Source: Candidatus Rokuibacteriota bacterium
Lineage (GTDB): Bacteria; Methylomirabilota; Methylomirabilia; Rokubacteriales; CSP1-6
Assembly (NCBI GenBank): GCA_016188005.1
Contig: JACPIQ010000012.1
Coordinates: forward strand, 15,224 to 79,223
DNA length: 64,000 nt
Reading direction: 5' to 3'
Every line of letters starts with the position of its first letter. The stretch's first letter is position 1. Below the pieces are notes generated by a model. It was not told where the DNA came from, searched no databases, and saw nothing but the letters and a program-made list of their open reading frames with translations. Below, in pieces: positions 7,736-35,997 of this stretch. The translations under genes were made by a program, and so were the position numbers.

Positions 7736-7740
7736 CGGCC

Positions 7741-19301: not shown

Positions 19302-19606
19302 GGCGTTTCTCCTTCGGAAGGCAGCCACTTGGAGCGTGGCGCCGGAGCCACGTGTCGAGTAGGATCGCGTGCGATCCGCACCTTGCGCCATCGGTCCGCC
19401 AGAGTCTTGCGTCTTACCGCAACCCCTCACTCAGCCATGCGCACGGCAACCACTTCCCCTCGCGCGGCAAGCGCTGCGTACGGCTCTCCGCCTATCCCCC
19501 TGGTGGCCCACACTCCACCGCACCTTCAAGCAGTCAGCCACCACCGGCCCACGAACTCGGTCACGACCCTCCCACCCAACCGCGCGCTCCGTGGGTAACG
19601 CTCCGC

Positions 19607-20929: not shown

Positions 20930-20958
20930 GACACTCCCTCCTGGCCAGCGCGCTCGCG

Positions 20959-22242
20959 CTAACGAACTCCCAGCGCCGCCGGTACCACGGTCGTAATCGT
21001 TGGGACAAAGATCAGGATGCCCAACCCCAGAAGCAACACAAGAAGAAAGGGGACCATCCCCCTGCTCACCTTGTCGATACTCACCTGCCCCACGGCGCAT
21101 CCAACAATGAGACCAACGCCGGCCGGAGGCACGAAGAGACCGATCCCGACCGCGGCGATCACTACAATCCCGTAATGGAGCGGGTTGATGCCCAGCTCTT
21201 CAACCACCGGAAGGAAGATCGGAACAAAAATCATCATGGCCGGAATCCCTTCGAGCAACGACCCGATGAACACGAAGACCAGGGACGTTACCAGCAGGAA
21301 GAACCACGGCCCCGACGACACCCCGGCGATGGCCCGGACGATGATCTGTGGGAGGTGTTGCACCGCCAAGAGGTACGACAGCACCGAGGCGGCTCCGATC
21401 AGCAGCATGATCACTCCCGTGTTCACCCCCGTATCAAGGAGGGCGTGCCACAGATCCCGAACCGTGATTGTCCGGTACACCGCCACTCCGAACACCAGGA
21501 CGTACAGTACCGCCACCGCTCCAGCCTCCGTCGGCGTGAAGACCCCACCCAGGATGCCGCCAAACATGATGACCGGGAGCCCCAGGGGCACCGCGGCTCC
21601 GGAAGCGGCCCTCAAGAACTCCCGCCACGTCGCCCGATCCTCTCGCGCAACGTCCAGTCTCCGCGCCTGCACGTAGACGAGGCCCATGATCAACACGGCG
21701 AGCACGGCCGCCGGAAGGAATCCCGCGAAGAACAACGCCGCCACAGACAACGACATCAGCTCGCCGAGGATGATCATGTTGATGCAGGGCGGGATCAGGA
21801 TCCCCATGGCAGACGCCGCCGAGATGATCGCGACCGAGTGCGGCCGCGCGTATCCTGCCCTCTGCATGGATGGGAGCAACATCGAAGATATGGCTGAGAC
21901 GTCCGCAACCGTCGATCCCGATATTCCCGAAAAGAACATCTCCGCCACGACCACGGCCATCCCGAGCCCACCGCGCAAGTGAGCCACGAGCGCCCGCGCC
22001 AGTGTCAACAGACGATGCGCGATTCCGCTCATCTCCATCAGCGTCCCCGCCAGGATGAAGAACGGAATGGCCAAGAGCACGAAGGAGTCACTTGCCGCTA
22101 CCATCCGACCGGGAATGAGCAGGAGCGGCACCGTCCCCGTCAGGAAGATCGCGATGACGGCGGCCACCCCCATCGTGAAGGCTATGGGGACTCCTAAGAC
22201 GAGCAGCATGACGAACACCACTCCCAGGAGCAGAAGGGTCAC
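20959..22242 (-). CDS. dctM: TRAP transporter large permease (DctM)
   Basis: 427 aa, ~12 TM, typical DctM N-terminus MTLLLLGVVFVMLLVLGVPIAFTMG. Confidence 0.85.
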   Translation of the reverse strand: MTLLLLGVVFVMLLVLGVPIAFTMGVAAVIAIFLTGTVPLLLIPGRMVAASDSFVLLAIPFFILAGTLMEMSGIAHRLLTLARALVAHLRGGLGMAVVVAEMFFSGISGSTVADVSAISSMLLPSMQRAGYARPHSVAIISAASAMGILIPPCINMIILGELMSLSVAALFFAGFLPAAVLAVLIMGLVYVQARRLDVAREDRATWREFLRAASGAAVPLGLPVIMFGGILGGVFTPTEAGAVAVLYVLVFGVAVYRTITVRDLWHALLDTGVNTGVIMLLIGAASVLSYLLAVQHLPQIIVRAIAGVSSGPWFFLLVTSLVFVFIGSLLEGIPAMMIFVPIFLPVVEELGINPLHYGIVVIAAVGIGLFVPPAGVGLIVGCAVGQVSIDKVSRGMVPFLLVLLLGLGILIFVPTITTVVPAALGVR

Positions 22243-22245
22243 TCG

Positions 22246-22707
22246 TTACGCCTCTCTCGCCGCCCGCATCCTCGCCACCACCCCGTAGGCTCTATAGCAT
22301 ACGTACCCAACCATGAGCCCGCCCGACACTGGAACAGCCAGATACTGCCAGCCGATCGAGATTCCCAATCCAGTGAATACCTGCCTGAAAGCGATCTTCG
22401 TCGCCGGAATTCCCTGCATCACCAGCACGGTGGCGAACACCAGCACAAACAGCTCAGTTGTGCCGGCAATCGCTTCCCGGACCCGAACAGGCAGCCGCGC
22501 CATGACCAGGTGGACGCCGAAGTGAGCACCGCGCTTGACCCCGACGGCGCCGCCGGTGAACGCGAGCCACACGAGCAGCATCTTCTGGAGCTCGTCGATC
22601 CCCGAGACCTGCAAGAGAAAGACGTACCTGAACAGTACGCCCGCGTTGGCCAGCACCACGAGCAGGGCGACCAACACGACGACGAGAGCTTCCGGCAGCT
22701 GTTCCAT
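22246..22707 (-). CDS. dctQ: TRAP transporter small permease (DctQ)
   Basis: 4-TM small protein immediately upstream of dctM. Start probably the internal MEQLPEAL (alternative 22794). Confidence 0.65.
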   Translation of the reverse strand: MEQLPEALVVVLVALLVVLANAGVLFRYVFLLQVSGIDELQKMLLVWLAFTGGAVGVKRGAHFGVHLVMARLPVRVREAIAGTTELFVLVFATVLVMQGIPATKIAFRQVFTGLGISIGWQYLAVPVSGGLMVGYVCYRAYGVVARMRAAREA

Positions 22708-22849
22708 CAGAATCCGCGCGCGTCCCCGCCTCACATCGTGACCCGAAGCGCCACTCTCACCCACCCCCATCCTCCGCGCCGTACGCGCCCCCAACCGCTC
22801 TAGAGCCGGCCCGCGCCCCGCCGGAGCCTTCCCCGCATTCCCGCACGCC

Positions 22850-23881
22850 TCACTTGCCAGCCTTCCCGATCTCCTTCACGAGACCCATGTCAACCGTCTT
22901 CACCACTTCCGGTACCTCCCACACACCGACCCCTAGGCTCCTCCACCTGCTCCGCTCCGCTGGCGTCGGCGTGTATACCTTCACACCCTTGTCCACCAAG
23001 TACTTTCGAGAAGTCCGGACGTCGTCCTCGTCCAGCTTCGCCGCGTACTTCGCGGCCTGGTCGGCCTCCTCGGAAATCATCTTCTGCATATCCGCCGGCA
23101 ACGAGCTGAAGAAGGTTGGCTCAACCAGCACCACCCATGCGATCGCGTACAGGTCCAGGTCGAGAGCGTACCGGATCACCTCGTGGTGTTTGAACGGCAC
23201 CAGCCAATTCCACAGCAGCAACTCGCCATCCACGACACCCTGCTGTAATCCGCTGTACGTTTCTCCCCAGTCCACGAACGTCGGAAGCCCACCGAATGCC
23301 CTCACGATCGCCTGTTCGACCGGGGAGGTCGTGGTCCTGATCTTCAACCCCCGCACGTCCTCCGGCACCCGCACCGCCTTCTTCGACGTATAGAGCTGGC
23401 GAAATCCACCGATATCCTGATACCACAGCACCTTCAGCTTGGTGTCCCGCTCGATCTCCCTGTTCATCTTCGTCCCGATCGGGCCCCACAGCACCTCGTG
23501 AAGGTGCCCTCTATCCGTGAACAAGAAGGGCAGATCGAGCACGTTCAGCGTCTTCTGGAACGCGGCAAAGTTCCCGTTCGACACTGCCGCCATCTCCAGT
23601 ACCTTGCTCTGCATGGCCTCGACCGCCGCCCTGGGTCCGTACAATGAATTGCTCGGATACACCTCGACGACTATTCTCCCGCCCGACCGCTCCTTGACCC
23701 TGTCCGCAAACCGCTGCAACACGACACCGGACGCCTGTTTCGCTGCGGCCGGCGAAGCCAGCTTGATCGTTATCGGCTTCTGGGCGAAAACGTCTCGCGG
23801 ACCCAGAAGCGCGCCCATCGTCACGAACACCGCAAACAGCACGCAGAATCCCCGCCTAAGCCCCAAGCGTTCAGTCGTCAT
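22850..23881 (-). CDS. dctP: TRAP transporter solute-binding protein (DctP family)
   Basis: Signal peptide, DctP-family length and motifs (e.g. DLPFLF). Confidence 0.85.
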   Translation of the reverse strand: MTTERLGLRRGFCVLFAVFVTMGALLGPRDVFAQKPITIKLASPAAAKQASGVVLQRFADRVKERSGGRIVVEVYPSNSLYGPRAAVEAMQSKVLEMAAVSNGNFAAFQKTLNVLDLPFLFTDRGHLHEVLWGPIGTKMNREIERDTKLKVLWYQDIGGFRQLYTSKKAVRVPEDVRGLKIRTTTSPVEQAIVRAFGGLPTFVDWGETYSGLQQGVVDGELLLWNWLVPFKHHEVIRYALDLDLYAIAWVVLVEPTFFSSLPADMQKMISEEADQAAKYAAKLDEDDVRTSRKYLVDKGVKVYTPTPAERSRWRSLGVGVWEVPEVVKTVDMGLVKEIGKAGK

Positions 23882-23937
23882 CTTCGCTCCTCCTTAGATA
23901 GCGCTCCGTCCAGCCGCCTGTCACCATTGCCCCGGGG

Positions 23938-25218
23938 TCATCTGAGAAGAACTTCGGGCAACACCGTCGTGAACCACGGAACCAGCGTCAGAACCACCAT
24001 TCCGACCGACAGCACTACGAGAAACGTCACCATCGGCTTGAACACCTCCTGCATGCTGACCTTGCCGATCGTGCACCCTGTCACCAGACCGGCGCCGATG
24101 GGAGGAAGGAACAACCCGATGCCGACCGAGGCCACCACGAGGGTCAGGAAATGCAGCACGTTGATTCCCAGCTTGTCCACTACGGGCAGCAGTATCGGGA
24201 CGAAAATCAGTGCTGCCGGAAGGCCCTCGAGCACGGCTCCGCCGAGCACGAAGATCAGATTCGCCAGTATCAGGAAGACCCACGGGGCAAACGACACCGA
24301 CACCATCACCTTCGCGGCGCTCTCCGGCACGTGTTCCACCGCGAGGAGGTACGAGAAAATCGTGGCGAGCGCCACCAACAGGAGCACGCTCCCGGAGATG
24401 ACAGCGCTGTCGGCCAGAATCCTCGGCAGATCGGCGATCCGCACCTCGCGATAGACGAACACACCGACCGCGAATGCGTACAAGACCGCGACCCCCGCGG
24501 CCTCGGTGGGCGTCGTCGCTCCACTTAGGATCCCGCCGAAGATGATCACGGGCATGCCCAGCGGGATGAGCGCGTCGATGAGGGCGTTCCCCAGCTCGCG
24601 CAGCGACGCCCGCCCCTCCGAAGGCAGCTGGTACCGGCGCGCTTGATAGAACAGCATGGCCATGATGACCAGCGCGAGCACCATCGCCGGAACGACCCCC
24701 GCGATGAACAGCGCGGCAACAGAGACGTTCGCGATGCCCGCCAGCACCACCATCAGGATGCATGGCGGGATCAGGATCCCCATCGCCGAGGCTGCAGCGA
24801 TGATGGCGACCGAATACGGGGCCGGGTATCCACTTCGCCGCATCGCAGGGAGCATCATCGCCGACATCGCCGAGACATCGGCGAGGGTGGACCCGGAAAT
24901 CCCGGAAAAGAACATCTCCGACACCACCACTCCCATCCCCAGCCCGCCCCGAACGTGACCGACCAGGGCCCGCGCGAGACGGACGAGTCGATGGGAGATA
25001 CCCCCGGTATCCATCAGGGCACCAGCCACGATGAACAACGGCACTGCTAGGAGCGTGAAAGAGTCCACACCGGACAGCGCTCTCTCGACGATCAACGAAA
25101 GCCTCAACGCCGGGTGGATGACGAGCACCACGAAGGACGTCACCCCCAGCGCAAAGGCCACCGGTATTCCCACAACGACACTCCCCGCAAACACCACGGT
25201 CAACACGAGCAGAATCAT
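23938..25218 (-). CDS. dctM: TRAP transporter large permease (DctM), second system
   Basis: Start MILLVLTVVFAGSVVVGIPVAFALG. Paralogue of 20959-22242. Confidence 0.85.
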   Translation of the reverse strand: MILLVLTVVFAGSVVVGIPVAFALGVTSFVVLVIHPALRLSLIVERALSGVDSFTLLAVPLFIVAGALMDTGGISHRLVRLARALVGHVRGGLGMGVVVSEMFFSGISGSTLADVSAMSAMMLPAMRRSGYPAPYSVAIIAAASAMGILIPPCILMVVLAGIANVSVAALFIAGVVPAMVLALVIMAMLFYQARRYQLPSEGRASLRELGNALIDALIPLGMPVIIFGGILSGATTPTEAAGVAVLYAFAVGVFVYREVRIADLPRILADSAVISGSVLLLVALATIFSYLLAVEHVPESAAKVMVSVSFAPWVFLILANLIFVLGGAVLEGLPAALIFVPILLPVVDKLGINVLHFLTLVVASVGIGLFLPPIGAGLVTGCTIGKVSMQEVFKPMVTFLVVLSVGMVVLTLVPWFTTVLPEVLLR

Positions 25219-25444
25219 TCCGTGCTCACCTCTTGCGTTCTCCATCTCACCGACAGGCTGCGGACGAAGACATGAACCAGACCGCTTCCAGGGATACGGC
25301 CGACGGGCTTCACCATGCCGCGCCGCGGTCCGCCGATCCGATGTCAGGGCCTGGGCTAGCTGGGCGCGCTAGGGTCACGCGGGCTGCGCCGCCGGGACCA
25401 GCCGTTCATCCGGGCGACGTGCCGAGTGACTCGATCCAGACGAG

Positions 25445-25909
25445 CTACCCTGTGCGCGCGTCATGCCCGCCTGACACAACTCGCACTGCGGCGTAGGTGA
25501 CCATCAGCCCACCGGACACGGGAATGGCCAGATACGCCCACGCCATCGAGATGCCGATCGTGACGTACTGCACAACCACCATCTGTCGGAGAACTACAAC
25601 TCCCACGATCAGGAATACCGCCCCAAACGCCATCATCGCCAGGTTACTGAGCGTGAACAGAGAGCGCCGCAGCGAGTCGGGCAAGGCCGAGACCACCAAC
25701 GCGACCGCGAAGTGACTCCCCCGTCTCACCCCAATCGCCGCCCCCATGAACGTGACCCATATCAGCAGCAGGCGGCTCGCCTCGTCTGACCACATGAGAG
25801 GATCGTTCAGGAGATACCTGAAGACCACCGCGAGATTCGTCACCACAATGAGGACTGCGAACAGCGCCGCCATCACCATCTCCGGAACATTCGCCAGAGC
25901 CCGGGCCAT
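25445..25909 (-). CDS. dctQ: TRAP transporter small permease (DctQ), second system
   Basis: 154 aa, 4 TM. Confidence 0.7.
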   Translation of the reverse strand: MARALANVPEMVMAALFAVLIVVTNLAVVFRYLLNDPLMWSDEASRLLLIWVTFMGAAIGVRRGSHFAVALVVSALPDSLRRSLFTLSNLAMMAFGAVFLIVGVVVLRQMVVVQYVTIGISMAWAYLAIPVSGGLMVTYAAVRVVSGGHDARTG

Positions 25910-25924
25910 GTGCGCGCCGAGGGA

Positions 25925-26935
25925 CTAGCGCTTGAAGGCCTGCACTCGCTTGATCATGTCCGGGCCGACCTGAGCCTTGAATTCGTCCCAGACGGTCATT
26001 GCCTTCTTCTTCCACTGTTCGAGATCCGCCCCCGTGGGCGCATACAGCTTGACGCCGGCTTCAGCCAGCTTCGCCCGGGCATTCTCGTTCTGCTCCTGAT
26101 CGAGCTTGTAGGCCAGCTCGACGGCTTCGATGGCGCTCTTGCGGACGACTTCCTGATCTGCAGGGGATATCTTGTTCCAGGCCTCTCGCCGCATCGACAC
26201 CACCTGGACGTCTGCGGACGCGTTGGGCTCCGCAATGTACTTGATCACCTCGTGATGCTTCGGGAAGTACACCCACTGATGTTGCAGGTATTCGCCGTCG
26301 ACGGTGCCCTGCTGCAACGCCGTGTAGACCTCCGCGAAGCTCACGGGTGTCGGCCTCGCTCCCCACGCCTTCAAGAGCGCGATCTCCACCTTCGAGGAGG
26401 TGGCTCTCATCTTGAGTCCCTTGAGATCGTCCGGCACCCGGACAGCCTTGCGCGCGGTAGCCACGGTCCGAAAGCCCTGTCCCGGGAAGAACATCAGCAC
26501 CTGGACGTTCAGCTCCTTTCCCACGCGTGCCTTGATCTCCTCACCGATAGGGCTGTAGTTGAAGACGTCGACGACATGGCGCAGGTCCTTGAACACATAC
26601 GGGAGCCCGGCAAGGTACAGCGCTTCAGTGAGTGCCCCGATGTTGCTGCTCGAGATCGAGGCGATCTCGATGTTGCCCTGCATCACTCCGCGGTAGGCGT
26701 CCACCTCCAGTGCTAACCGTCCCGCCCCGTATACCTCAATCACCACTCGCCCATTCGTTCGCTCCTTGACCCACGCGGCGAACTGATCGTAGCCCCGGGA
26801 GTACGACATGGCGGGACTTCCTGCGTGCGCGAACTTGAGGATGGCCTGAGCACGCGCCACGCCCGCGCTTCCGATGAGCAGAACCACTGCCGCAAGGATG
26901 ATCGTCCCCAAGGATCTCGCCTTCGCCATGGCCAT
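25925..26935 (-). CDS. dctP: TRAP transporter solute-binding protein (DctP family), second system
   Basis: Signal peptide MAMAKARSLGTIILAAVVLLIGSAGVARA, DctP family. Confidence 0.85.
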   Translation of the reverse strand: MAMAKARSLGTIILAAVVLLIGSAGVARAQAILKFAHAGSPAMSYSRGYDQFAAWVKERTNGRVVIEVYGAGRLALEVDAYRGVMQGNIEIASISSSNIGALTEALYLAGLPYVFKDLRHVVDVFNYSPIGEEIKARVGKELNVQVLMFFPGQGFRTVATARKAVRVPDDLKGLKMRATSSKVEIALLKAWGARPTPVSFAEVYTALQQGTVDGEYLQHQWVYFPKHHEVIKYIAEPNASADVQVVSMRREAWNKISPADQEVVRKSAIEAVELAYKLDQEQNENARAKLAEAGVKLYAPTGADLEQWKKKAMTVWDEFKAQVGPDMIKRVQAFKR

Positions 26936-27368
26936 CGCCCTCCTTTGCGTCTCAGCGCCGACGCATGTCTTCCCTCTCCACCGCGCCCATCCCTGGTGAA
27001 ACCACTATGCCCATCTTCCAATCGCACCCATCACCGAGCGTTACCGCGCACTCCGGTCGGCCTTGCCTGTGGCCTTGAAGGTTCGCCCTACCTTCCTGGC
27101 TTGCCCCCGTGTGGCAGGAGTTGAGGAACAGGCCCCCCGCGCCCGCGTCGCACTCCCCCTCCCGCCTGTCGCGCGCGCGCCCGAATGGCCCGCATCTCGC
27201 TCGTGGCCACCCGAGGAAGCTGTGTGCGGCGATGGAAAGATGGAAAGGAGGAACGGACATGGCGGACCGAGCAGGATTCACGCCCAGCACACCGCAGCGG
27301 ACGCGATCCAGCGCGGCCAGCTGCAAGGCTTCAGCGACCGCAACCGCCCTCCCTGCGACGGTTCACGC

Positions 27369-28442
27369 TCACGCCTGCAGTTTCGACCAGACCTCGGCCG
27401 CAAACAGTCGGATCGAGTCCAACGTCCGCTGGTGCGCGAGCCCTGGGAAACTCATTCGACACACGATGTGACGCACATCCGCCTCGCTCTGATACACCTT
27501 GATCTTGTCCAGAACCTCGTCAGGATCCCCGACGATGAACCGGTCCTCGTTCAGCTCCGAGAAATCTACCGGCCGACCGACATATCGGCTATACAGTTGC
27601 GCCAGCGGCTCCATGACGTCCCGACGAGCCGCCTCCCTGCTCTCAGCCACGTACACTTCCCGGATGGTCGTCATCTCCACATCGGCGATATCCCTGCCGG
27701 CTTCCTGCAGCGCCGCGGCGTAGATCAGGGATGCCTGCTTCACCTCGGCGAACGTCTCTATCGGCGAGACCAGCAACGAGTACCCCCTCTTCGCGGCGAA
27801 CTTGATGCTCTCCTCCGACGAGGCCCCGACCCAGATTGGCGGATGCGGCATCTGGACTGGCTTCGGCGTCACCGGGAGATACTTCGGTCGGACACCACCT
27901 CTCTGCCACTGAACGACGTACGGTCGCACATACGGTTCCACCGAGAACGCTGCCCCTCCCGATCCCAACGCCGCCAGCACAGGAACCTTGTAGTACCGTC
28001 CCGCGTACGCGAACGAATCGTTCGTCCATGCCTTCACAACGATGTCGAGGGCCTCGGAGAATCGCTCCCATCTGTTGCCAAATTCGACGCGGTAGCCGCG
28101 AAACTCCTCCTCCCGATGTCCAGCCCCCACCCCAAACAGCAGCCGTCCATTCGAAACGATGTCGACCACCGCGAAATCCTCGGCAACACGCACCGGATTA
28201 TCGAGAGGTAGCACCTTCACACCGGTACCAATCCGCACACCCTTCGTCGTCGTGGCGATCGCCGCCAGCATGGTCTGCAGCGAGGGCAGAACTTGGTCGT
28301 CGCCAAAATGATGTTCCGCAACCCACACAGAATCGTAGCCGATGTCGTCGGCCACCCTCACCTGCTCCAGCACTTCGTCGTACAGGTCAACAGGCTCTTG
28401 GCGCCCGTCCGTATCGAGGCTGAAGAACAGTCCCGTTCTCAT
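27369..28442 (-). CDS. LLM-class flavin-dependent oxidoreductase
   Basis: MRTGLFFSL...VWVAEHHF...PHPPIWVGA pattern. Confidence 0.8.
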   Translation of the reverse strand: MRTGLFFSLDTDGRQEPVDLYDEVLEQVRVADDIGYDSVWVAEHHFGDDQVLPSLQTMLAAIATTTKGVRIGTGVKVLPLDNPVRVAEDFAVVDIVSNGRLLFGVGAGHREEEFRGYRVEFGNRWERFSEALDIVVKAWTNDSFAYAGRYYKVPVLAALGSGGAAFSVEPYVRPYVVQWQRGGVRPKYLPVTPKPVQMPHPPIWVGASSEESIKFAAKRGYSLLVSPIETFAEVKQASLIYAAALQEAGRDIADVEMTTIREVYVAESREAARRDVMEPLAQLYSRYVGRPVDFSELNEDRFIVGDPDEVLDKIKVYQSEADVRHIVCRMSFPGLAHQRTLDSIRLFAAEVWSKLQA

Positions 28443-28458
28443 CGCCCGCCCCTACTCC

Positions 28459-29418
28459 TCACGCGCCCTGCCCACGGCTCCCCTGCAGCACGGACACGAA
28501 CGGGGACCCTGAGTAGTACACCTGCCCCTCCGAGCGCCCTTCCGCCCGCGGCTCCATGCGCGCACGACCAGCAGGAGCCGCCACACTCACCTCCACCTTC
28601 AGAATGCGGGCGGCATTCCTGAACATCACCTTCTCCCTCACGTCCTCATTGAACGGGAGCTTCTCGTACCGCTTCAAGCTCTCCTTGAAATCAACAAACG
28701 GATGCGCGCTGGCATACAGCACCTTGTCGGCAATGATGGTGTTTGCCGCCTGCACGTATAACTCGGCTCCCGGCATGAGCTCGTACGCGGACCAGTCGAA
28801 GAACACGTTGACATGCCGCATCGCGACACCGACCATCTCCGTGACCCACGGGAATCCCCCATGGCTAACAACAATCGTCAGCTCCGGGAAGTCCGCCGCG
28901 ACTTCATCGATGACTCTCGGCGCCGTGTGCTCCATGACAGACCCGGGCACGAACGCACCCGGTCCACTCGTGAGAATCACCGGAACACCCAGCTCCGCAC
29001 ATTTCGCGTACACCGGATACAGCTTCTTGTCATTTGCGTATCGCCTGTGCATGTACGGATCCATCGAGATCCCCTTGAACTTCAGCTTCTCGATGCACCG
29101 CTGCACTTCCCGGACGGCCTCCATCCCCTTGTTGGGATCAACTCCTCCAAACGCGACAAAATTCCGAGGAAAGCGCTGCACGATGCTGGCGACGTGGTCA
29201 TTGGAGACCTTCCACCCGAACGTCGTCTCGAGATCTCTTCCCTGCACGACGGCCAGCGAAATGCCGGCGGTCTCCATCTCCCTGACCAAGTGCTCCACGG
29301 GCGAGGTCTTCTTTTCGTAGCCGATCCATTTCATCATGTCCTTGAATACCGGATTGTCCGCGATCGACACGAACTCCGCCGTGGAGGGTCGAACGCGAAA
29401 GTCGATAATGTTCGTCAT
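28459..29418 (-). CDS. amidohydrolase_2 (ACMSD/LigW/LigJ-like metal-dependent decarboxylase/hydratase family) with ~45-aa C-terminal extension
   Basis: Start MTNIIDFRVRP preceded by GAGGTGG. TIM-barrel amidohydrolase-2 motifs (VVSHGGFPW, FDWSAY). Tail VSVAAPAGRARMEPRAEGRSEGQVYYSGSPFVSVLQGSRGQGA follows the normal family C-terminus. Confidence 0.8.
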   Translation of the reverse strand: MTNIIDFRVRPSTAEFVSIADNPVFKDMMKWIGYEKKTSPVEHLVREMETAGISLAVVQGRDLETTFGWKVSNDHVASIVQRFPRNFVAFGGVDPNKGMEAVREVQRCIEKLKFKGISMDPYMHRRYANDKKLYPVYAKCAELGVPVILTSGPGAFVPGSVMEHTAPRVIDEVAADFPELTIVVSHGGFPWVTEMVGVAMRHVNVFFDWSAYELMPGAELYVQAANTIIADKVLYASAHPFVDFKESLKRYEKLPFNEDVREKVMFRNAARILKVEVSVAAPAGRARMEPRAEGRSEGQVYYSGSPFVSVLQGSRGQGA

Positions 29419-29428
29419 CTCGCCACCT

Positions 29429-30295
29429 CTAGAACAGCTGTCGGCCGGAGCGCGTTCCAGCCGCCGGCTCGAGCTTGAATAGGTCCGCCGCGTTCTTGTA
29501 CATGACCTTCTCCAGCACATCTGGCTTGAACGGCAGCTTTCGAAAGCGCTGTACCGTCTCCTTCATCGGCGCGAAAGGAAACGCCGTCGCAAACAAGTAC
29601 CGATCTGGAATACACGTGTTTGCCGCCTCCACGCACAGCTCCGCCCCTGGCATGAAGTGATACACGGACGTCTCGAAATAGACGTAGTCGTGCCGAAACG
29701 TGATCGCAACCATCTCCCGGCTGAATGGCCAGCCCCCATGGGAGCACACGATCTTGAGGCGCGAGAAATCGGTCGCGACCTCGTCGATCGGCATGGGCGA
29801 CCCAAAGCTCAGGTACGGGCCGGCGACCGGTAGAGGTCCGATCGTAATGAACACAGGAACATCGAGCTCAGCACAGAGCTCATAGACCGGGTACAGCCTG
29901 CGATCGTTCGCGTACATTCCAACAGCGAACGGGTCGATCGAGATGCCCTTGAGACCAAGCTCCCGGACAGCGCGGAACGTCTCCTTCACAGCGCCAGAGC
30001 CCTTCAGCGGGTCGATGCCAGCCACTCCGATGATGTGAGCCGGGTATTGGGACATCAGACTGGCCACGTAGTCGTTGGTCACCTTCCATCCCCCGGTCGT
30101 CTCGATGTCTCTCCCGGTGCACACGATCCTGGAGATCCCCGCTTCCCTCATGTCACGGATGAACTCATCGATCGGCGCGCTGGCCGGCATCGACGCCCCC
30201 ATCTTCCTGAAGACCATCTGAATCCCCGGGCTCGCCTCAAACAGCGACATGTACTCCTTGGTGTTCGGCCTCGCACGCACATCAATGATTTCCAT
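29429..30295 (-). CDS. amidohydrolase_2 family protein (paralogue)
   Basis: MEIIDVRARP... CSHGGWPF motif. 10-nt gap to the next gene. Confidence 0.8.
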   Translation of the reverse strand: MEIIDVRARPNTKEYMSLFEASPGIQMVFRKMGASMPASAPIDEFIRDMREAGISRIVCTGRDIETTGGWKVTNDYVASLMSQYPAHIIGVAGIDPLKGSGAVKETFRAVRELGLKGISIDPFAVGMYANDRRLYPVYELCAELDVPVFITIGPLPVAGPYLSFGSPMPIDEVATDFSRLKIVCSHGGWPFSREMVAITFRHDYVYFETSVYHFMPGAELCVEAANTCIPDRYLFATAFPFAPMKETVQRFRKLPFKPDVLEKVMYKNAADLFKLEPAAGTRSGRQLF

Positions 30296-30400
30296 TCACT
30301 GGCTCCTATCGGATCCGCCATTGCCGACCCCGACCGACGACTTCCCGGAACCCCTGGCCCGACAGCCTCACAAAGCCCACGGCCTTTCCGGTCGCAGCTT

Positions 30401-31429
30401 CTAGAAATGCGGCATCACTTCCGTGGCAAAGAGTTCCATTTCCGCCAGGATCCGCTCGTTGCGAAAGAACGCAGGGAAGATTCGCGGCATCACCACATCG
30501 ATCCCCAATGCTTGGTACTTCTTGAGTTCCCTTGTCACCTTCTCCGGGGTGCCGACAACAAAGCTGTCAAGCAATCGTCGGTAGAACGGATGCTCCCTGG
30601 GCAGCTTCCGCAACGGATTCCCCGCTTCGTCAAGAATGAACCCAAACCCGACCAGCTGCTCCTCGTACTGCGGAATCAGATCCTCCCGCATGTAACGCTC
30701 GGCCTCTTCTTGGGTTCGGGCAACGCAGACATCTCTCATGACCGCCATCTTCAAGCTCTCTCTCGCAACCCCGCCTGCCTTTGCACCCTTGAAGTACGCC
30801 TCACGGCATGCCGAAACCATCTCAAGGGTCGTAGCCGGACCGTGCCAATACGCCAGCCCATGACGACCCGCTCGCTCGGCGGAAACAATGGCGGTGCCCC
30901 CGGCAAACCAAATCGGCGGGTGCGGCTGCTGGAGCGGCTTCGGTACGACGTGCACATTCTCGTACTGGTAGTGCTTCCCGTGGTGGCTGAAGCTATCCTC
31001 GCTGAGTGCCTTCTGCACGACCGTGATGCCTTCGACAACTCGCTCCCCTCGCGTCCGCTTCTCAGTCCCTAAGCCATCGAACTCCTCGGGGCGGTACCCG
31101 ATGCCTATGCCCAGCATGAGCCTCCCGTGCGACAAGTTGTCGACCACGGCCGCATCCTCGGCCACACGCAGCGGATCATGTAACGGAAGGAGGAACGCTC
31201 CTGTGCCCAATTTGATCCTCGAGGTTCGCCGAGCGAGACCAGCCAGCACAGGGAGCAGTGACGGGCAATACCCGTCATACCAAAAATGGTGCTCCGTGAC
31301 CCAGAAACTGCCAAAGCCAAGCTCCTCGGCCCGACAGGCGTGATCAATGAGTTCTTCGTACATCTTCACGAATGATCTCGGGCATCCACGGGGCCGCTGC
31401 ATGCCATACAATCCGTACCAGAACTCCAT
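30401..31429 (-). CDS. LLM-class flavin/F420-dependent oxidoreductase
   Basis: MEFWYGLYG...FWVTEHHF...PHPPIWFAGG. Confidence 0.8.
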   Translation of the reverse strand: MEFWYGLYGMQRPRGCPRSFVKMYEELIDHACRAEELGFGSFWVTEHHFWYDGYCPSLLPVLAGLARRTSRIKLGTGAFLLPLHDPLRVAEDAAVVDNLSHGRLMLGIGIGYRPEEFDGLGTEKRTRGERVVEGITVVQKALSEDSFSHHGKHYQYENVHVVPKPLQQPHPPIWFAGGTAIVSAERAGRHGLAYWHGPATTLEMVSACREAYFKGAKAGGVARESLKMAVMRDVCVARTQEEAERYMREDLIPQYEEQLVGFGFILDEAGNPLRKLPREHPFYRRLLDSFVVGTPEKVTRELKKYQALGIDVVMPRIFPAFFRNERILAEMELFATEVMPHF

Positions 31430-31432
31430 TCC

Positions 31433-31774
31433 CTAGCTCCCTAACCTCGTGAGGTGATCAGGATCCGGCGGTCCTTCCTCGGCGCCTTCGGCTCGATCAC
31501 CCTGTCCGTAATCAACCCGGTCAACCAGCGCCACGACTGCAGCATCGATCGGGATCCCCGCGTCGCCCACCACCTTCTGCGCGGTCATGCCCTGCACCAC
31601 CAGGACCATCTCCCCTCTTCCGCAGCCCAGAGCATCCATCGCCACAATGACCTCCCCGCGCTCTGCAGCCCCTCGACCAGAACCTACCAGCTCAACAACA
31701 AGGAACCTCAACCCCGTCAGCTTCTCCTGCTTGTGGGTCGCCCATACGGTCCCGATTACCCTTCCGAGGATCAT
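31433..31774 (-). CDS. BMC vertex protein (BMC-P, EutN/CcmL/PduN family)
   Basis: MILGRVIGTVWATHKQEKLTGLRFLVVE...VAMDALGCGRGEMVLVVQG...PIDAAVVALVD matches the PF03319 consensus. ~25-aa C-terminal tail. 4-nt overlap with the LLM gene start. Confidence 0.8.
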   Translation of the reverse strand: MILGRVIGTVWATHKQEKLTGLRFLVVELVGSGRGAAERGEVIVAMDALGCGRGEMVLVVQGMTAQKVVGDAGIPIDAAVVALVDRVDYGQGDRAEGAEEGPPDPDHLTRLGS

Positions 31775-31858
31775 GCGTGCTCTCTCCGGCGCCCTCTTTC
31801 TCTCGCCTCAGCCAGGAGTCCTGAAAGATTCCTCACTCGGACAGCGACACAAGAGATT

Positions 31859-32143
31859 TCATTCCCCTCCGCCCGTGAGACTCAGGAACTTGCTCAGGTC
31901 CGGTGTCGGATTCGCAATCACCGTCGCCCAGACGTCTCCTGATCGCTTGCCGGCCTCGACCCCGGCCTCAACTGCCACCCGCACAGCACCGACATCTCCG
32001 GCCACAGCGATGGCAAGTCGTCCGCCGCCAACCTTTTCGTACTTGATGACCTTCACGTTGGCGGCCTTCACCATCGCATCCGAGGCCTCGATGAGACCCA
32101 CATACCCCCTCGTTTCAACGATCCCCAGTGACATCTCTGCCAT
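31859..32143 (-). CDS. BMC hexamer shell protein (BMC-H, PF00936)
   Basis: MAEMSLGIVETRGYVGLIEASDAMVKAANVKVIKYEKVGGGRLAIAVAGDVGAVRVAVEAG is a near-textbook PduA/EutM-like BMC domain. Confidence 0.85.
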   Translation of the reverse strand: MAEMSLGIVETRGYVGLIEASDAMVKAANVKVIKYEKVGGGRLAIAVAGDVGAVRVAVEAGVEAGKRSGDVWATVIANPTPDLSKFLSLTGGGE

Positions 32144-32213
32144 CACTAAGCCTCCTGTTGGCACGAATGTGAATGCATGGCTCCCAGCAAGAGCAACACA
32201 GCACTATCATCGA

Positions 32214-33212
32214 CTACGCCGTCTGTTCCGGAATGGTCAACCTCCTTGCGCTCGAGGTGAGCGCAGGCCTGCGACCCTCGGCACGCAGGAGAAACGGTCC
32301 CTCAAGGTCTCTCTGAAGTTTGGTCAGCACATAGGTGCCGATCACCTCGCCAACCCGCTGAGCCCCTGCCGCCGCGGTGTCCACTGCGTGTCTCACCGCA
32401 GCGAGCTCTCCGCGTACGATCCCGGTCACCGCGCCTGACCCTGGGTTCTCATAGCCCACGAATGCCACTTTGGCGCTCTTCATCATGATGTCCAGCGCAC
32501 ACACGGCGGTCACCATGCCCTTGGTCTCGATGAACCCCAACGCATTCGGCACTGATGGCTCCGCAGCGTCAGCGGCTCGGGGCTGCTCACCCAGAAAGAA
32601 GGCCATGAGCTCGCGAGCAGGATTCGCGAGGACGGCGGACGCGACCACCTCTCCCACCTGACTGGCGGCCGCGACTCCCGCATCCACGGCGACTCGTGCG
32701 GCGCCGATATCCCCTACGACACACACAGCCACCATGCCTCCGAGAACCTTGTCATATCGCACCAGCGACACATTGGCCGCCTTGAGACACGCGTCCGTCG
32801 CAACGACCAGCGGCAGGAACCCGCAGGTCTCGATGAGACCCAGCGCATTCTTTCCACTCTGCCTTGATGCCTCCAGCGCCTCCGGCTCCAGAAATGCCCA
32901 CGACGACACTTCCAGAGCGGGCACCAGCGCTGACGCGCCCGCGACATCGGGCCCGCTCCTGCCCCCCGGCCCCGCGGTACTCACGCCTTCCTGTCTCTTC
33001 GGCTGCTGAAGCGTTGCCAGATCACTCGTGGCGCTCACCGACTCCCTGGCCCCTTCGGACGGAGGAGATTGTGAGGTGCGCGACTGCTTCCTCATCCCTT
33101 CTGCCATCGCCTCTCTTCCTCCCCTTTGCACCATCCCCACCGCCCCGCGTGTCCGCCCTCCTCGGTCCCGGCCAACCCTCACGCGTGCTACTCGGATCCC
33201 ACCCGCTGTCAC
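32214..33212 (-). CDS. tandem-BMC-domain shell protein (BMC-T) with ~100-aa low-complexity N-terminal extension
   Basis: Two consecutive BMC domains (ALGLIETCGFLPLVVATDACLKAANVSLVRYDKV...VVGDIGAARVAVDAG and ALGFIETKGMVTAVCALDIMMKSAKVAFVGYE...VRGELAAVRHAVD). True start uncertain. Confidence 0.7.
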   Translation of the reverse strand: MTAGGIRVARVRVGRDRGGRTRGAVGMVQRGGREAMAEGMRKQSRTSQSPPSEGARESVSATSDLATLQQPKRQEGVSTAGPGGRSGPDVAGASALVPALEVSSWAFLEPEALEASRQSGKNALGLIETCGFLPLVVATDACLKAANVSLVRYDKVLGGMVAVCVVGDIGAARVAVDAGVAAASQVGEVVASAVLANPARELMAFFLGEQPRAADAAEPSVPNALGFIETKGMVTAVCALDIMMKSAKVAFVGYENPGSGAVTGIVRGELAAVRHAVDTAAAGAQRVGEVIGTYVLTKLQRDLEGPFLLRAEGRRPALTSSARRLTIPEQTA

Positions 33213-33481
33213 TCCGTATTCAACAGCGCCGCCAGACCAGGGCTCGGGTTCGCGATCACCGCGGCCTTCGCCTCTCCGAGTGCCTCCGCGGCTCGGAGTC
33301 CAGCATCCACCGCAACCCGCACGGCACCGATGTCACCCACCACGCACACCGAGACAATCGCATCCCCCACCTTCTCGTATCTGAGAACCCTGACCCTTGC
33401 CGTCTTCACCATGGTGTCAACGGCTTGCGCCAGCGAAACAAATCCCACCGTCTCGATGATCCCGACAGATCCATGCGCCAT
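33209..33481 (-). CDS. BMC hexamer shell protein (BMC-H, PF00936), second
   Basis: MAHGSVGIIETVGFVSLAQAVDTMVKTARVRVLRYEKVGDAIVSVCVVGDIGAVRVAVDAG. Confidence 0.85.
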   Translation of the reverse strand: MAHGSVGIIETVGFVSLAQAVDTMVKTARVRVLRYEKVGDAIVSVCVVGDIGAVRVAVDAGLRAAEALGEAKAAVIANPSPGLAALLNTE

Positions 33482-33593
33482 GGCCGCACTCCACGAGCGT
33501 GATGCGCTCACTCTGGCGTTCTGTACCGCTGACTCGAGTCCTCTGGGACGCTCCCTCACTCCATCGAAGAGCCCGCTGTGACCGAATTGCCCC

Positions 33594-34247
33594 CTATGAC
33601 CCCCACTGGCCCTGTTGGTCCGAAAACAGTGATCGCTCTGTGAGTTCGCCCTCGGACGGTTTCACACGTGTGATCTCGCTGAAAGCCTGCGCGAAATCCA
33701 TCTGCGGGTTCGTGACCAAGTGTGCTCCTACCATCTCGCCGACCCGACTCGCCTCGTGGGCTCCAACATCTATCGCATGCTGCACTGAAGCGATGTCGCC
33801 CACCACACACGCCGTGACAAGGCCGTCCCCGACAAGTTCATGCCCGACGAAGACCACGGCGACCGACTTCATCATCGCGTCCAACGCGAGGGCCAGGGGC
33901 AGAAGGCCTCTCGTTTCCAAGAAGCCCATCGACGCGGACGGACCAATTCGCGCCAAGCCTTCACCGATCTCGGGCCTCGAATGAAGTCCCAATAGGGCAA
34001 GCACCGCGCGACTCGGCGCAGGCAACACCGCCACCGCAATGTGTTTTTCGGGAGCGACTTGGAAGGCAGCGTCCGCTGCGTATTTCACCGCGGAGAGTGG
34101 CCCCTCAACGCACACCATCACGAAGCCGCCCCCGATCTTGTGGTATCTTCCCACCTTGACCGGCGCGGTCTTCACCATCGTATCTACCACTCGTGCCAGC
34201 CCGACAAACCCTCGCGTCTCCACCAAGCCAAGAGAACCGTTCATCAT
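33594..34247 (-). CDS. tandem-BMC-domain shell protein (BMC-T), second
   Basis: Start ATGATGAAC (MMNGSLGLVETRGFVGL...) preceded by AAGGGAAGGG. Second BMC domain MGFLETRGLLPLALALDAMMKSVAVVFVGHE...VVGDIASVQHAIDVG. Confidence 0.8.
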   Translation of the reverse strand: MMNGSLGLVETRGFVGLARVVDTMVKTAPVKVGRYHKIGGGFVMVCVEGPLSAVKYAADAAFQVAPEKHIAVAVLPAPSRAVLALLGLHSRPEIGEGLARIGPSASMGFLETRGLLPLALALDAMMKSVAVVFVGHELVGDGLVTACVVGDIASVQHAIDVGAHEASRVGEMVGAHLVTNPQMDFAQAFSEITRVKPSEGELTERSLFSDQQGQWGS

Positions 34248-34276
34248 TCTTGACACCCTTCCTTACTGCATGAAAT

Positions 34277-34293
34277 CGCCCAACACGTGCCCG
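34277..34293 (-). promoter_or_regulatory. candidate sigma-54 (-24/-12) promoter of the BMC operon: GGGCACG-N4-GGGCG
   Basis: On the minus strand GGCACG (-24) is perfect and the GC of -12 is correctly spaced, but the -12 box is GGGC rather than TTGC. The predicted TSS is ~20 nt upstream of the BMC-T start and its Shine-Dalgarno sequence. Confidence 0.3.
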
Positions 34294-34387
34294 AATCTCC
34301 CGTCTCGATGTATCCGATCTAGCTCACCAACCGTGCCTCTTGTGAGAGATTTCGGAGTATTGATGCTCTATACTGACGAAGTAGCCC

Positions 34388-34419
34388 TTGACTTAGCATC
34401 CCCCGTGGGACTAAGTCAA
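34388..34419. promoter_or_regulatory. perfect 9-bp inverted repeat TTGACTTAG-N14-CTAAGTCAA (candidate operator/UAS) between BMC operon and Lrp gene
   Basis: Read directly in the sequence. Lies ~100 bp upstream of the sigma54-like element in a 670-bp divergent intergenic region of lower GC. Confidence 0.3.
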
Positions 34420-34929
34420 TAGGGAAATGCAACACATCGTCCGAGGTCTCGGAGCGTGAGATCGCCGGGACCTGTCAAACCCATGTGAGACTGTTGCCGG
34501 GCGGGGGGAATCGACGGTGCCGGGTCTCCGGGGCGGGTTTGACGGTCTCAGCACGGGGGGCGGGGATGATCCCAGGCTTTGGGGCGAGGGGAAGCGAGGG
34601 CGTAGATGTGCTCGCGTTTTCGGTCAATGGTGTACTGGCGCTCCCGGGCCAACTGGATCGCCAGACGAAGCTGACGAGGTCCACGCCAGTCAAGCCCAGG
34701 GGTGGTCACACCCCAGTGATGCCGCTTGAGACAGACGTGGCGAATTGATTCGCGTCGGTGAACCCGCACCGCTTTGGCGGCCGCTCACCTCGAGCGTCGC
34801 GACCAGGCCACACTTGTTCAGCGGCTGGTCCGCCGTCTCCGCGACCTCGCCTTCGCCGGGGCAATTCAGCCCGCAGCTTAGGCCCTCCCTGACCACACCC
34901 GCGCGGCCGGGTATGTCTTCTTAGCTCTC

Positions 34930-35997
34930 ATGTCACGCAGCCCGTCGCGCAACAACGAGCCTCAGCAGCTGGACCTGGAAATCATTGCCAGGCTCCAGGA
35001 CGACGCGAGGATGCCGTTCACGGCAATCGCCGAAGAACTTGGGCTGTCTGAATCCACCGTCCGAAAGCGCGTCGCCAGGCTCCAGAAGCTCGGAATCCTG
35101 CACTTCACTGCGTTCGCAGATCCCTTGCGCCTTGGTTTCCAGTACTGGGCCCAGATCCAGGTCATGCTCGATCTCGCGACCCTGGAAACCACGGCTGCCG
35201 AACTCGCGAAGTACCCTGAGATTTTCTTCGTCGGCATCACAGCTACTGAGTACAACCTTTTCCTCGCCGGTATCTTCCGCTCGAACGCAGACCTCTTGAA
35301 CTTTCTCACGAGCCGTTTATCCAAGATGCCGGGCTTTCGAACGTCCATCACCTCAAACGTCTTGAAGATCTTCAAACGTCGTGGACTATTCTTCGCGGAT
35401 CAGCCCCGCCGCGCGCGTCGGCGGAGCCGGATCCTGGCCGGCCCATCAGGTGCCGATAGCGACGATCCGGTGCGTGTTGGGTCGCAAGACAAGATGATCA
35501 TCGCGTTGCTGCAGGCTGACGGCCGAAAGTCCCTTTCGCGAGTCGCAGCTGAACTCGGTATCGCGGAGGCGACGGCACACCGGCGAGTCGCCCGCCTCCA
35601 ACAGCTTGGCATCCTGCATTTTGAGGCTTTCGCGGACCCGCTACGCCTCGGTTTTCAGTACTGTGCGCTGCTCTCTCTTTCGGTGACGCCGAATCGCGTG
35701 AGTGAGGTCGCCGCAAGACTCGCGACGTTTCCTCAGCTGTTCTTCGTCAGTGTGACCACGGGCCAATGCGACATCTTCGTCGCTGGAGCCTTCCGCTCTA
35801 ACGAGGATTTCCTTCGCTTTCTGACCCGCGACATTGCAAACATTCATTGGATCACAGGCGTGTCCGCCACGAACGTACTGAGACTCGTGAAGCGGCAGCT
35901 TCTTTACCCACTCTTGGCCGAATTCGAAGGCAGACGACCGGATTCCGAGAAGGCAGCGAGGCCACCCCGGGCTTCTTCGGCTAGACCGCGTGGCTGA
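34930..35997 (+). CDS. tandem-duplicated Lrp/AsnC-family transcriptional regulator (two HTH+RAM units in one polypeptide)
   Basis: Two repeats of ...LDLEIIARLQDDARMPFTAIAEELGLSESTVRKRVARLQKLGIL... / ...DKMIIALLQADGRKSLSRVAAELGIAEATAHRRVARLQQLGIL..., each followed by a RAM-like domain. Divergent from the BMC operon. Confidence 0.8.
   Translation: MSRSPSRNNEPQQLDLEIIARLQDDARMPFTAIAEELGLSESTVRKRVARLQKLGILHFTAFADPLRLGFQYWAQIQVMLDLATLETTAAELAKYPEIFFVGITATEYNLFLAGIFRSNADLLNFLTSRLSKMPGFRTSITSNVLKIFKRRGLFFADQPRRARRRSRILAGPSGADSDDPVRVGSQDKMIIALLQADGRKSLSRVAAELGIAEATAHRRVARLQQLGILHFEAFADPLRLGFQYCALLSLSVTPNRVSEVAARLATFPQLFFVSVTTGQCDIFVAGAFRSNEDFLRFLTRDIANIHWITGVSATNVLRLVKRQLLYPLLAEFEGRRPDSEKAARPPRASSARPRG

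Follow-up and report, generated by a model that had tools for sequence, protein, structure and literature searches.

The non-coding gap between a BMC operon and a divergent gene for a fused double-Lrp/AsnC regulator contains a perfect 32-bp dyad, the arms of which are unchanged in the only diverged ortholog of the locus, and a related element is present at the operon of the closest tandem-Lrp homolog. The dyad probably serves as a control site of an ordinary kind, to which the neighboring double-Lrp protein may bind. The sigma-54 promoter that had been proposed next to the BMC operon is a match no better than chance.

Locus layout and conservation of the gap

The features considered here are collected in Table 1, with positions counted along the window, i.e. 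the whole 64-kb stretch of DNA that was analyzed. The BMC locus, carried on a 19-kb low-GC island, has four PF00936 genes and one EutN/CcmL (PF03319) gene immediately downstream of the gap, which measures 682 bp (34248-34929). Its cargo consists of luciferase-like monooxygenases and Amidohydro_2, with neither an aldehyde dehydrogenase nor a phosphotransacylase; no literature was found on BMCs of Rokubacteria or on BMCs with luciferase-like monooxygenase cargo. The ATGATG at 34247..34242 is the start codon region of the first shell protein, whose sole close relative found was P0031 (90% identity). The RBS-like stretch ahead of it, quoted in the original prediction as AAGGGAAGGG, actually reads TAAGGAAGGG (34264..34255), and the strings quoted there for the promoter and the dyad are present about where they had been placed.

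Table 1. Features of the BMC/double-Lrp locus and the related element at the L001 locus.
Feature	Position	Strand	Remarks
NtrC-type activator	175-1527	-	GAFTGA motif intact
PAS histidine kinase	1524-2903	-	
First BMC operon gene, tandem-BMC-domain shell protein	33594..34247	-	217 aa; PF00936, two domains
Purine-rich RBS-like TAAGGAAGGG	34255..34264	-	ahead of ATGATG; GGGACGGGG in L009, loosely conserved
Alternative -24/-12 register TGGGCGATTTCATGCA (TGG-N9-TGCA; TGGGCG-ATTTC-ATGCA)	34267..34282	-	6.0 of 22.9 bits
Sigma-54-like string GGGCACGTGTTGGGCG (GGGCACG-TGTT-GGGCG)	34277..34292	-	8/12 to consensus
Conserved CTCCGAAATC	34348..34357	-	near-inverted partner GATTCGGG at 34297..34290
Perfect dyad TTGACTTAG-N14-CTAAGTCAA (= TTGAC-N22-GTCAA)	34388..34419		perfect 9-bp arms
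Conserved block adjoining the dyad	34420..34488		63/69 identical to L009; neighboring non-coding DNA 61-67%
Distal GC-rich stretch, 435 bp	34495..34929		no recognizable feature
Fused double Lrp/AsnC regulator	34930..35997	+	355 aa; two HTH + RAM units
Dyad-related 32-mer TTGACACTGCATCCCGGTTCGGGGTAAGTCAA	L001:1774-1805		TTGAC-N22-GTCAA spacing as in the dyad

The whole gap, given as 670 bp, had been taken to be regulatory. This description may suit the part adjoining the BMC operon, where the GC content falls to about 50% (34250-34460); AT-richness and an alignment with the diverged ortholog (L009) are confined to 34248-34490. It is not supported for the distal 435 bp, which are GC-rich and show no recognizable feature. 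They hold a 68-aa minus-strand ORF with coding-like GC3 (34690-34896) and a terminator-like hairpin on the plus strand (34897-34912). None of nine ORFs gave a Pfam match at E-values up to 10, the stretch has no repeats in the window and no Rfam or homolog signal, and the 68-aa ORF retrieved only repeat-protein artefacts among 1.84 billion representatives; a hidden gene or pseudogene was dropped on these empty Pfam, repeat and homolog searches.

The perfect 9-bp inverted repeat reported at about 34388-34419 is confirmed, with arms at 34388-34396 and 34411-34419, each beginning with a -35-like TTGACT. With conservation left aside, the dyad stands out only slightly (P about 0.05). Shuffling the 682-bp gap produces one or more perfect 9-bp inverted repeats (spacer of 3-20 nt) in 5.4% of cases, shuffling the AT-rich 248 bp does so in 1%, and the window contains 27 such repeats. 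Another one in the same region (34474-34482/34535-34543) is not conserved in L009.

The dyad stands above chance because it is conserved in L009, the outcome of a check that the original prediction had named. L009 is the only diverged ortholog, all other copies (Logan contigs with the same proteins) being 100% identical to the window; protein-based scans for others, with the tandem-Lrp protein in genome contigs and with BMC-T in metagenome contigs, found nothing. The arms are identical at 18/18 positions (P about 6e-4 at a background of 0.66) and the spacer at 9/14, as compared to 61-67% identity in the non-coding DNA flanking the conserved parts and 82-84% at four-fold degenerate sites. Together with the block that adjoins it, the dyad forms a conserved core of about 100 bp (34388-34488), at the edge of which it lies. 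On the minus strand, this block contains a TTGACA (34478..34473), the palindrome TCCGAG-AC-CTCGGA (34453..34440) and GTTGCATTTCCCT; L009 carries a 6-nt indel after TTGACAGG. The conserved CTCCGAAATC and its partner GATTCGGG are both kept in L009, separated there by a 54-nt insertion. At the equivalent of about 34495, L009 has an inserted ISL3 element followed by the contig end, which confines the comparison to the part proximal to the BMC operon, and the regulator gene is not seen beside its operon.

The related 32-mer lies inside a 135-nt regulatory gap that heads the operon of the closest tandem-Lrp homolog (L001; 63% identity). It is identical to the dyad at 22 of 32 positions, has the CATCCC spacer start in common with it, and has the same orientation with respect to the regulator gene; about 800 kb of unselected DNA contained a single further independent site with four or fewer arm mismatches. 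No dyad-like element is present in the tandem-Lrp loci L003, L025, L026, L107 and L108. The exact dyad gave 7 matches in 185,579 species genomes, where about 9 are expected by chance, none of them in Rokubacteria and none adjacent to BMC genes, and no additional half-site was found within the window. The k-mer ATTTCGG is common to 4/6 tandem-Lrp locus groups, which is suggestive only, as 8% of shuffles reach this level, and it was discarded as a shared control k-mer.

Readings of the dyad

Whether the core is a conserved operator/promoter region, exerting control of the BMC operon and the tandem-Lrp gene by means other than sigma-54, is in our judgment an even call. On this reading, the working control region would be the AT-rich 240 bp adjoining the BMC operon (34248-34490), of which the core of about 100 bp, dyad included, would be the part under selection. 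The dyad would be a DNA site read by a protein, namely an operator overlapping the TTGACT hexamers that face both ways, and would control transcription of both divergent units independently of sigma-54. Of the proteins that might bind it, the double-Lrp regulator encoded on the other side of the gap is the most likely; in one possible geometry, two single-chain pseudo-dimers would sit on the dyad, one per 16-bp half (TTGAC-TTAGY-C-rich). Lrp-type proteins typically occupy clusters of sites spanning about 100 bp (PMC2995911), and the operator reading is favored by the 69-nt conserved block beside the dyad. The identity of the arms in L009, the loss there of the stem extensions, the related element at the L001 operon, the similarity of the second recognition helix to that of the L001 group and the drop in GC content likewise speak for it. 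It is weakened by the single diverged ortholog, whose arms never vary from those of the window and so offer no covariation, and next to whose operon the regulator gene is not seen, by the 9-N14-9 layout, which differs from the canonical 13-15-bp Lrp site (PMC2995911), by promoter scores no better than background for TTGACT-N17/18-CTAAGT/TAAGTC, by the five tandem-Lrp loci lacking the element, and by the absence of the dyad sequence elsewhere in the window or in Rokubacteria genomes. A more specific version is tentative, and we regard it as possible but somewhat doubtful: the dyad may be the operator of a single-chain, pseudo-dimeric double-Lrp protein, which would place two non-identical HTHs on each asymmetric half, with the chains head-to-head across overlapping divergent promoters, and would switch on an uncatalogued microcompartment on a horizontally acquired island.

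The dyad might instead act as RNA, forming a hairpin within a long 5' leader, either that of the BMC operon or that of the regulator transcript, with a role in stability, processing or attenuation. Both strands are predicted to give a stable hairpin (-20 kcal/mol, z about -3.5), the L009 sequence folds too (-15.6 kcal/mol, z -2.7), and conserved arms around a variable loop are the pattern of a stem-loop. However, the arms are invariant between the window and L009, so that compensatory changes are absent, and the stem extensions of the window, CCCT/AGGG on the outside and TCCC/GGGA on the inside, are lost in L009, which argues that the sequence is kept rather than the pairing. The arms of the L001 element are complementary at only 6/9 positions, yet the sequence TTGAC...TAAGTCAA is kept. 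Moreover, there is no T-tract, Rfam searches at E-values up to 10 returned only noise, and the entire leader folds no better than its shuffles (z -0.34). We consider a function as RNA unlikely, and infer that a protein-read site rather than an RNA structure has been selected; the binder and the positions of the transcription starts are put forward here as predictions.

We also judge it unlikely that the dyad is nothing more than a pair of divergent sigma-70-type promoters that overlap (TTGACT-N18-TAAGTC on each strand), without a site for a regulator of its own. On both strands, TTGACT agrees with the -35 consensus at 5/6 positions, the L001 element reads TTGACA-N18-TAAGTC, L003 has a plausible promoter at the equivalent place (TTGACG-N18-TAGGCT), and among candidates in the BMC direction that are conserved in L009, these are the best. 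On the other hand, the -10 candidates lack either the A at position 2 or the T at position 6, the consensus scan returned 0 promoters, a relaxed PWM gave 4.6 bits against a background median of 4.3 per 750 nt, and the conserved 69-nt block would be left unexplained. No consensus-grade promoter, of sigma-54 or sigma-70 type, could be assigned in the gap by consensus and PWM scans. Two further readings were set aside by eye, a MerR-type promoter, for which the dyad is too long, and an IHF site, the WATCAA-like string being neither consensus nor conserved.

That the dyad is a functionless chance palindrome, conserved only on account of a short evolutionary distance, is improbable. Such a reading would accommodate the abundance of similar repeats in the window, the modest whole-gap shuffle value, the single ortholog with its closely similar four-fold sites and the chance-level number of genome-wide matches. 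It is opposed by the identity of the arms and of the neighboring block, well beyond that of the remaining non-coding DNA, and by the related element at the L001 operon.

The proposed sigma-54 promoter

In the string proposed as a -24/-12 promoter (34292..34277), the GG (34291-34290) and the GC (34279-34278) have the 10-nt separation that sigma-54 promoters require. This spacing is commonplace, with 1,605 GG-N10-GC sites within the window, 157 of which equal or better the string's match to 8/12 specified positions of TGGCACG-N4-TTGCW; GGCACG-N6-GC alone occurs 9 times in the 64 kb. Both T's of the -12 TTGC (-15/-14) are replaced by G. PWM scoring, another check named in the original prediction, placed the string at background level (110th among 127,970 positions, with 4.9 of 22.9 bits on an approximate matrix). 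The counterpart in L009, GGGGGCAGGTTGGGCG, matches at 5/12 positions, GGCACG having become GGGGCA, and the -24 hexamer, with 3/6 bases changed, is the least conserved portion of the proximal block.

The NtrC-type activator and the kinase predicted near the start of the window are indeed encoded there, but the suggested link with the gap is not supported. The activator gene lies at a distance of 31 kb, in DNA of another base composition; it is the sole sigma-54 activator gene in the window, and the 19-kb island contains none. As for the dyad being an enhancer or activator site, it is a genuine conserved cis-element, but nothing marks it as a sigma-54 enhancer. NtrC-type dyads are about 17 bp long and the NifA site is TGT-N10-ACA, as compared to 9-N14-9 here, and to our knowledge the dyad does not resemble any known activator site.

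That the overlapping register (TGGGCG-ATTTC-ATGCA, 34282..34267) is a sigma-54 promoter is very unlikely. This register matches the consensus at 7/12 positions in the window and L009 alike and is conserved at 14/16, TGG and TGCA being kept and both changes falling at spacer positions that sigma-54 leaves unspecified. Both elements lie in the proximal block, which in L009 has kept its place beside the gene even with the 54-nt insertion and has no conserved -35 for sigma-70. However, the C and A at -23/-22 are missing, the window has about 70 sites with scores as high, and 14/16 falls short of significance if the background is 66% (P about 0.05, binomial estimate). A start at about 34256 would shorten the leader to about 9 nt and destroy the RBS-like stretch, and no activator gene is nearby. 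The original model, a promoter at 34292..34277 with the dyad as upstream activator site of an NtrC-type enhancer-binding protein, would give a start at about 34266 and a 19-nt leader containing the RBS-like stretch. The center of the dyad, about 112 bp upstream, is as far away as enhancers usually are, and the activator of the organism has its GAFTGA motif intact. Even so, for this model, given the poor and unconserved match, the remote activator gene and a dyad-to-promoter distance shifted by 54 bp in L009, the verdict is that it is highly improbable.

The double-Lrp protein and known systems

The claim that the regulator carries two complete Lrp/AsnC units in one chain, an uncommon arrangement, is borne out by Pfam, PF13404 (HTH_AsnC) and PF01037 (AsnC_trans_reg) each being matched twice. 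Solved Lrp structures were retrieved with each of the halves (E-values 3e-19 and 2e-18). In having two units within 355 aa, the protein departs from the dimerizing single-unit chain of about 150 aa. A search of 5.8 billion proteins yielded about 23 clusters with the fused architecture, and an alignment-based metagenome scan only 3 true tandem-Lrp loci along with 77 generic single-unit ones. No solved structure with a double unit was found, all 22 PDB matches being single units of 141-190 aa, and a literature search on fused double Lrp proteins found nothing. The recognition helix of the second HTH is EATAHRRV in P0001, the closest being EATVHKRL of the L001 group; those of more distant tandem-Lrp homologs, whose loci have no dyad-like element, differ.

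Like the sigma-54 (RpoN) promoters glnAp2/NtrC and nifH/NifA, the gap has GG and GC 10 nt apart, a dyad about 110 bp upstream and a GAFTGA activator in the organism; unlike in them, the resemblance to the consensus does not rise above background and is not kept in the ortholog, and the locus is without an activator gene. Characterized BMC loci (pdu/PocR, eut/EutR or EutVW) show a divergent arrangement of regulator and operon with a shared intergenic control region. The present locus is similar to pdu and eut in this shared region and in the dedicated regulator at its edge, and differs from them in the regulator family, a double Lrp, and in its cargo. In general terms, a dedicated regulator at the locus edge is described for BMC loci (PMC8217296).

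As in autoregulated Lrp/AsnC regions (Ss-LrpB, LrpA, Ptr2, FL11, E. coli Lrp), the regulator is adjacent and divergent to its presumed target, palindromes are present, and the conserved stretch, about 100 bp long, is in keeping with a nucleoprotein complex on several sites (PMC2995911). Known sites of this family, however, are AT-rich semi-palindromes of 13-15 bp bound by homodimers, whereas here the unit is fused and double, and the putative site is a 32-bp dyad with a GC-rich center.

A divergent regulator with a conserved palindrome is in itself an ordinary architecture, and as a sigma-54 case the region is of no consequence, because the evidence goes against sigma-54. If the dyad is the operator of the double-Lrp protein, a 32-bp site and a purifiable protein would offer a handle on the switching of an unstudied BMC locus in an uncultured soil phylum, and fused Lrp proteins of two units would gain a first DNA target.

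Genomic setting and extent of the proposed control region

The BMC operon lies on the minus strand and comprises four PF00936 shell genes and one EutN/CcmL gene, with genes for luciferase-like monooxygenases, two Amidohydro_2 proteins, two TRAP transporter sets and an acetyl-CoA hydrolase/transferase downstream of the shell genes. Its GC content places the entire locus, with the two TRAP transporter sets, the divergent tandem-Lrp gene and an alpha/beta hydrolase gene, in a compositional island (0.60-0.64 at about 18.2-37.6 kb vs. 0.70-0.75 on both flanks), which was probably acquired horizontally. The NtrC-type activator (GAFTGA present) and PAS kinase expected near the window start were found there, at 175-2903, outside the island.

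The first shell protein had only one close relative among 5.8 billion proteins searched (P0031, 90% identity), carried on a 2.4-kb contig, L009, the only diverged ortholog. The gap between the operon and the divergent gene measures 682 bp. The original prediction considered about 670 bp of it as regulatory; 34248-34490 is the only part that is AT-rich (about 50% GC) and alignable to L009. The GC-rich distal 435 bp (34495-34929) gave no Pfam, Rfam or repeat signal. In L009, an ISL3-family transposase gene with the terminal repeat GGCTCTTCC occupies positions 1-283; the IS end abuts the equivalent of about 34495. Some 310 nt separate the insertion from the first shell gene downstream of it; it adjoins the conserved block directly, and the contig terminates within the IS. 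The dyad region and the block beside the shell gene are further apart in L009, by an insertion of 54 nt.

The quoted -24/-12 string, the ATGATG start and the perfect dyad are all present in the sequence (minus strand ...GAGATTCGGGCACGTGTTGGGCGATTTCATGCAGTAAGGAAGGGTGTCAAGAATGATG...), and the RBS-like run, slightly mistyped in the original prediction, is listed with its correct spelling in the table. The 68-aa ORF in the gap had no Pfam match and no genuine homolog in 1.84 billion representatives, its three matches being repeat-protein artefacts. No sigma-70 consensus promoter was detectable in the gap. The regulator ATG has no obvious Shine-Dalgarno sequence, and the hairpin preceding it may be due to chance, as shuffles of the region average 0.6 such hairpins.

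Features in and next to the gap, and dyad-like sites elsewhere (window coordinates unless a contig is named)
Feature	Position	Strand	Remark
ATGATG	34247..34242	minus	start of 217-aa protein with two BMC domains
RBS-like run TAAGGAAGGG	34264..34255	minus	read in sequence
Overlapping -24/-12 register TGGGCGATTTCATGCA	34282..34267	minus	TGG and TGCA present in window and L009
Predicted -24/-12 string GGGCACG-TGTT-GGGCG	34292..34277	minus	read in sequence
Perfect dyad TTGACTTAG-N14-CTAAGTCAA	34388-34419	both	read in sequence
68-aa ORF	34690-34896	minus	coding-like GC3, within gap
Terminator-like GC hairpin, then T-rich run	34897-34912	plus	directly upstream of regulator ATG (34930)
Asgard 32-mers	L017:1003-1034, L018:1302-1333, L021:2155-2186		happen to fit dyad pattern

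The dyad and its conserved core

The dyad is conserved at the orthologous locus: its arms are identical in L009 at 18 of 18 positions and its spacer at 9 of 14, and the adjoining block (34420-34488) at 63 of 69. Between the same two sequences, identity is 82-84% at four-fold degenerate sites and 61-67% in unconstrained non-coding segments. The best-supported reading is that the conserved 100-bp core would be a control region for the divergent gene pair, with the dyad as a putative protein-binding operator overlapping -35-like hexamers.

An RNA hairpin at the dyad is a rival explanation, and the predicted fold reaches -20 kcal/mol. The window's stem extensions, CCCT/AGGG on the outer and TCCC/GGGA on the inner side, are gone in L009; thus it is the arm sequence, rather than the pairing, that is visibly conserved between the two, the invariant arms leaving no variable positions to compare for covariation. 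Bare overlapping promoters are another rival: of the candidates in the BMC direction that are conserved in L009, the dyad arms (TTGACT-N17/18-CTAAGT/TAAGTC) are the best, with background-level scores. As for a chance palindrome, a perfect 9-bp inverted repeat, taken alone, is not remarkable, since the window holds 27 with spacers of 3-20 nt and 5.4% of gap shuffles contain at least one; it is the conservation of its arms in L009 that raises the dyad above this level.

The gap also holds, at 34474-34482 / 34535-34543, a second inverted repeat with perfect 9-bp arms (GTCAAACCC / GGGTTTGAC) and a 52-nt spacer, its distal arm past the ISL3 junction of L009.

The proposed sigma-54 promoter

The original prediction of a sigma-54 promoter upstream of the first shell gene did not hold up. 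The string matches TGGCACG-N4-TTGCW at 8 of 12 specified positions, with G at both T's of the -12 box; 157 sites in the whole window are equal or better with GG and GC held fixed, and GGCACG-N6-GC occurs nine times. Under an approximate PWM after the promoter compilation of Barrios et al. (1999), it scored 4.9 of 22.9 bits (window maximum at most 11.3 bits) and ranked 110 of 127,970 positions; therefore, about one such site is expected per 1.2 kb. The alignment with L009 is the decisive test: there the -24 hexamer GGCACG, the least conserved stretch of the block beside the shell gene, reads GGGGCA (three of six bases differ), and the site scores 5/12. The overlapping register matches the consensus at 7/12 (6.0 bits) and is identical to L009 at 14 of 16 positions, no significant excess over the local background; transcription from it would be predicted to start near 34256, with loss of the RBS-like stretch. 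The string of the original prediction has the bare GG/GC spacing, but it neither stands above background nor is conserved in L009. Taken together, the sigma-54 readings in both registers are quite improbable.

Two small MITE-like elements of about 145-160 nt (7735-7892 and 8427-8569) gave spurious sigma-54 PWM matches. Their terminal inverted repeats are built on GGGGTCAG(G/A)TCTTG, span about 24-33 nt and vary at the inner end.

The double-Lrp regulator and related loci

As predicted, the divergent gene encodes a single chain (355 aa) in which the complete HTH_AsnC + RAM unit occurs twice. The protein is 100% identical to an NCBI entry for Candidatus Rokubacteria, the group of the MAG that contains the window, and represents a fused form within the Lrp/AsnC family, whose solved relatives are all single-unit proteins of 141-190 aa. 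This architecture was found in about 23 clusters from soil/sediment metagenomes and MAGs; the first recognition helix, ESTVRKRV, is near-invariant across the tandem-Lrp family and the second is variable.

The closest homologs (55-63% identity) do not neighbour BMC genes. They lie in or beside Fer2 / molybdopterin-hydroxylase / FAD-binding clusters (last gene in L001 and L003, first in L025), near luciferase-like monooxygenase genes. Across L001/L002/L024, L003-L005, L025 and L104, homologs with 52-64% identity are embedded in such operons, with luciferase-like monooxygenase and hydantoinase genes, not BMC genes, on the flanks. This setting suggests an N-heterocycle-type or related substrate as the signal sensed by the family.

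At the closest homolog, the regulatory gap of 135 nt contains an element, TTGACACTGCATCCCGGTTCGGGGTAAGTCAA (L001:1774-1805), which shares with the dyad the TTGAC-N22-GTCAA spacing, the CATCCC spacer start, the orientation relative to the regulator gene and 22 of 32 positions. Unselected DNA totalling about 800 kb contained only one other independent site with at most four arm mismatches, and the chance of such a site within about 1.2 kb of tandem-Lrp-associated control regions is roughly estimated at 0.005. The element is absent from the more distant tandem-Lrp loci L003, L025, L026, L107 and L108, whose second recognition helix is unlike the one shared by the group of the window and L001.

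Exact matching of the dyad across 185,579 species genomes gave seven hits, about the number expected by chance, and none in Rokubacteria. Three MAGs of Asgard archaea (Odin-, Hod- and Promethearchaeia) share a near-identical 32-mer, TTGACTTAG(G/A)ATTCTTAAAATCTCTAAGTCAA, at sites with neither a tRNA nor an Rfam family; it has no relation to the window. ATTTCGG/CCGAAAT recurs in the control regions of four of six tandem-Lrp locus groups (window 34348-34357; L003 2122-2156, as an inverted pair; L025; L026), which is only suggestive, being equalled by about 8% of shuffles.

Lrp-type regulators often autoregulate and cover site clusters of about 100 bp (PMC2995911). For the putative operator, the likeliest binder would be the adjoining double-Lrp protein, and the arrangement would work like many divergent regulator/operon control regions. 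The cargo-like genes of the BMC locus (18336-34247) encode PF00296 luciferase-like monooxygenases (3-4 copies) and two Amidohydro_2 proteins; neither an aldehyde dehydrogenase nor a phosphotransacylase was seen in it. None of PF00296, 'luciferase' and 'Rokubacteria' occurs in the 2021 BMC catalog (PMC8217296), whether in its text or its supplements. The locus may represent an uncatalogued BMC type, and the double-Lrp protein together with this unusual cargo lends the control region a modest added interest.
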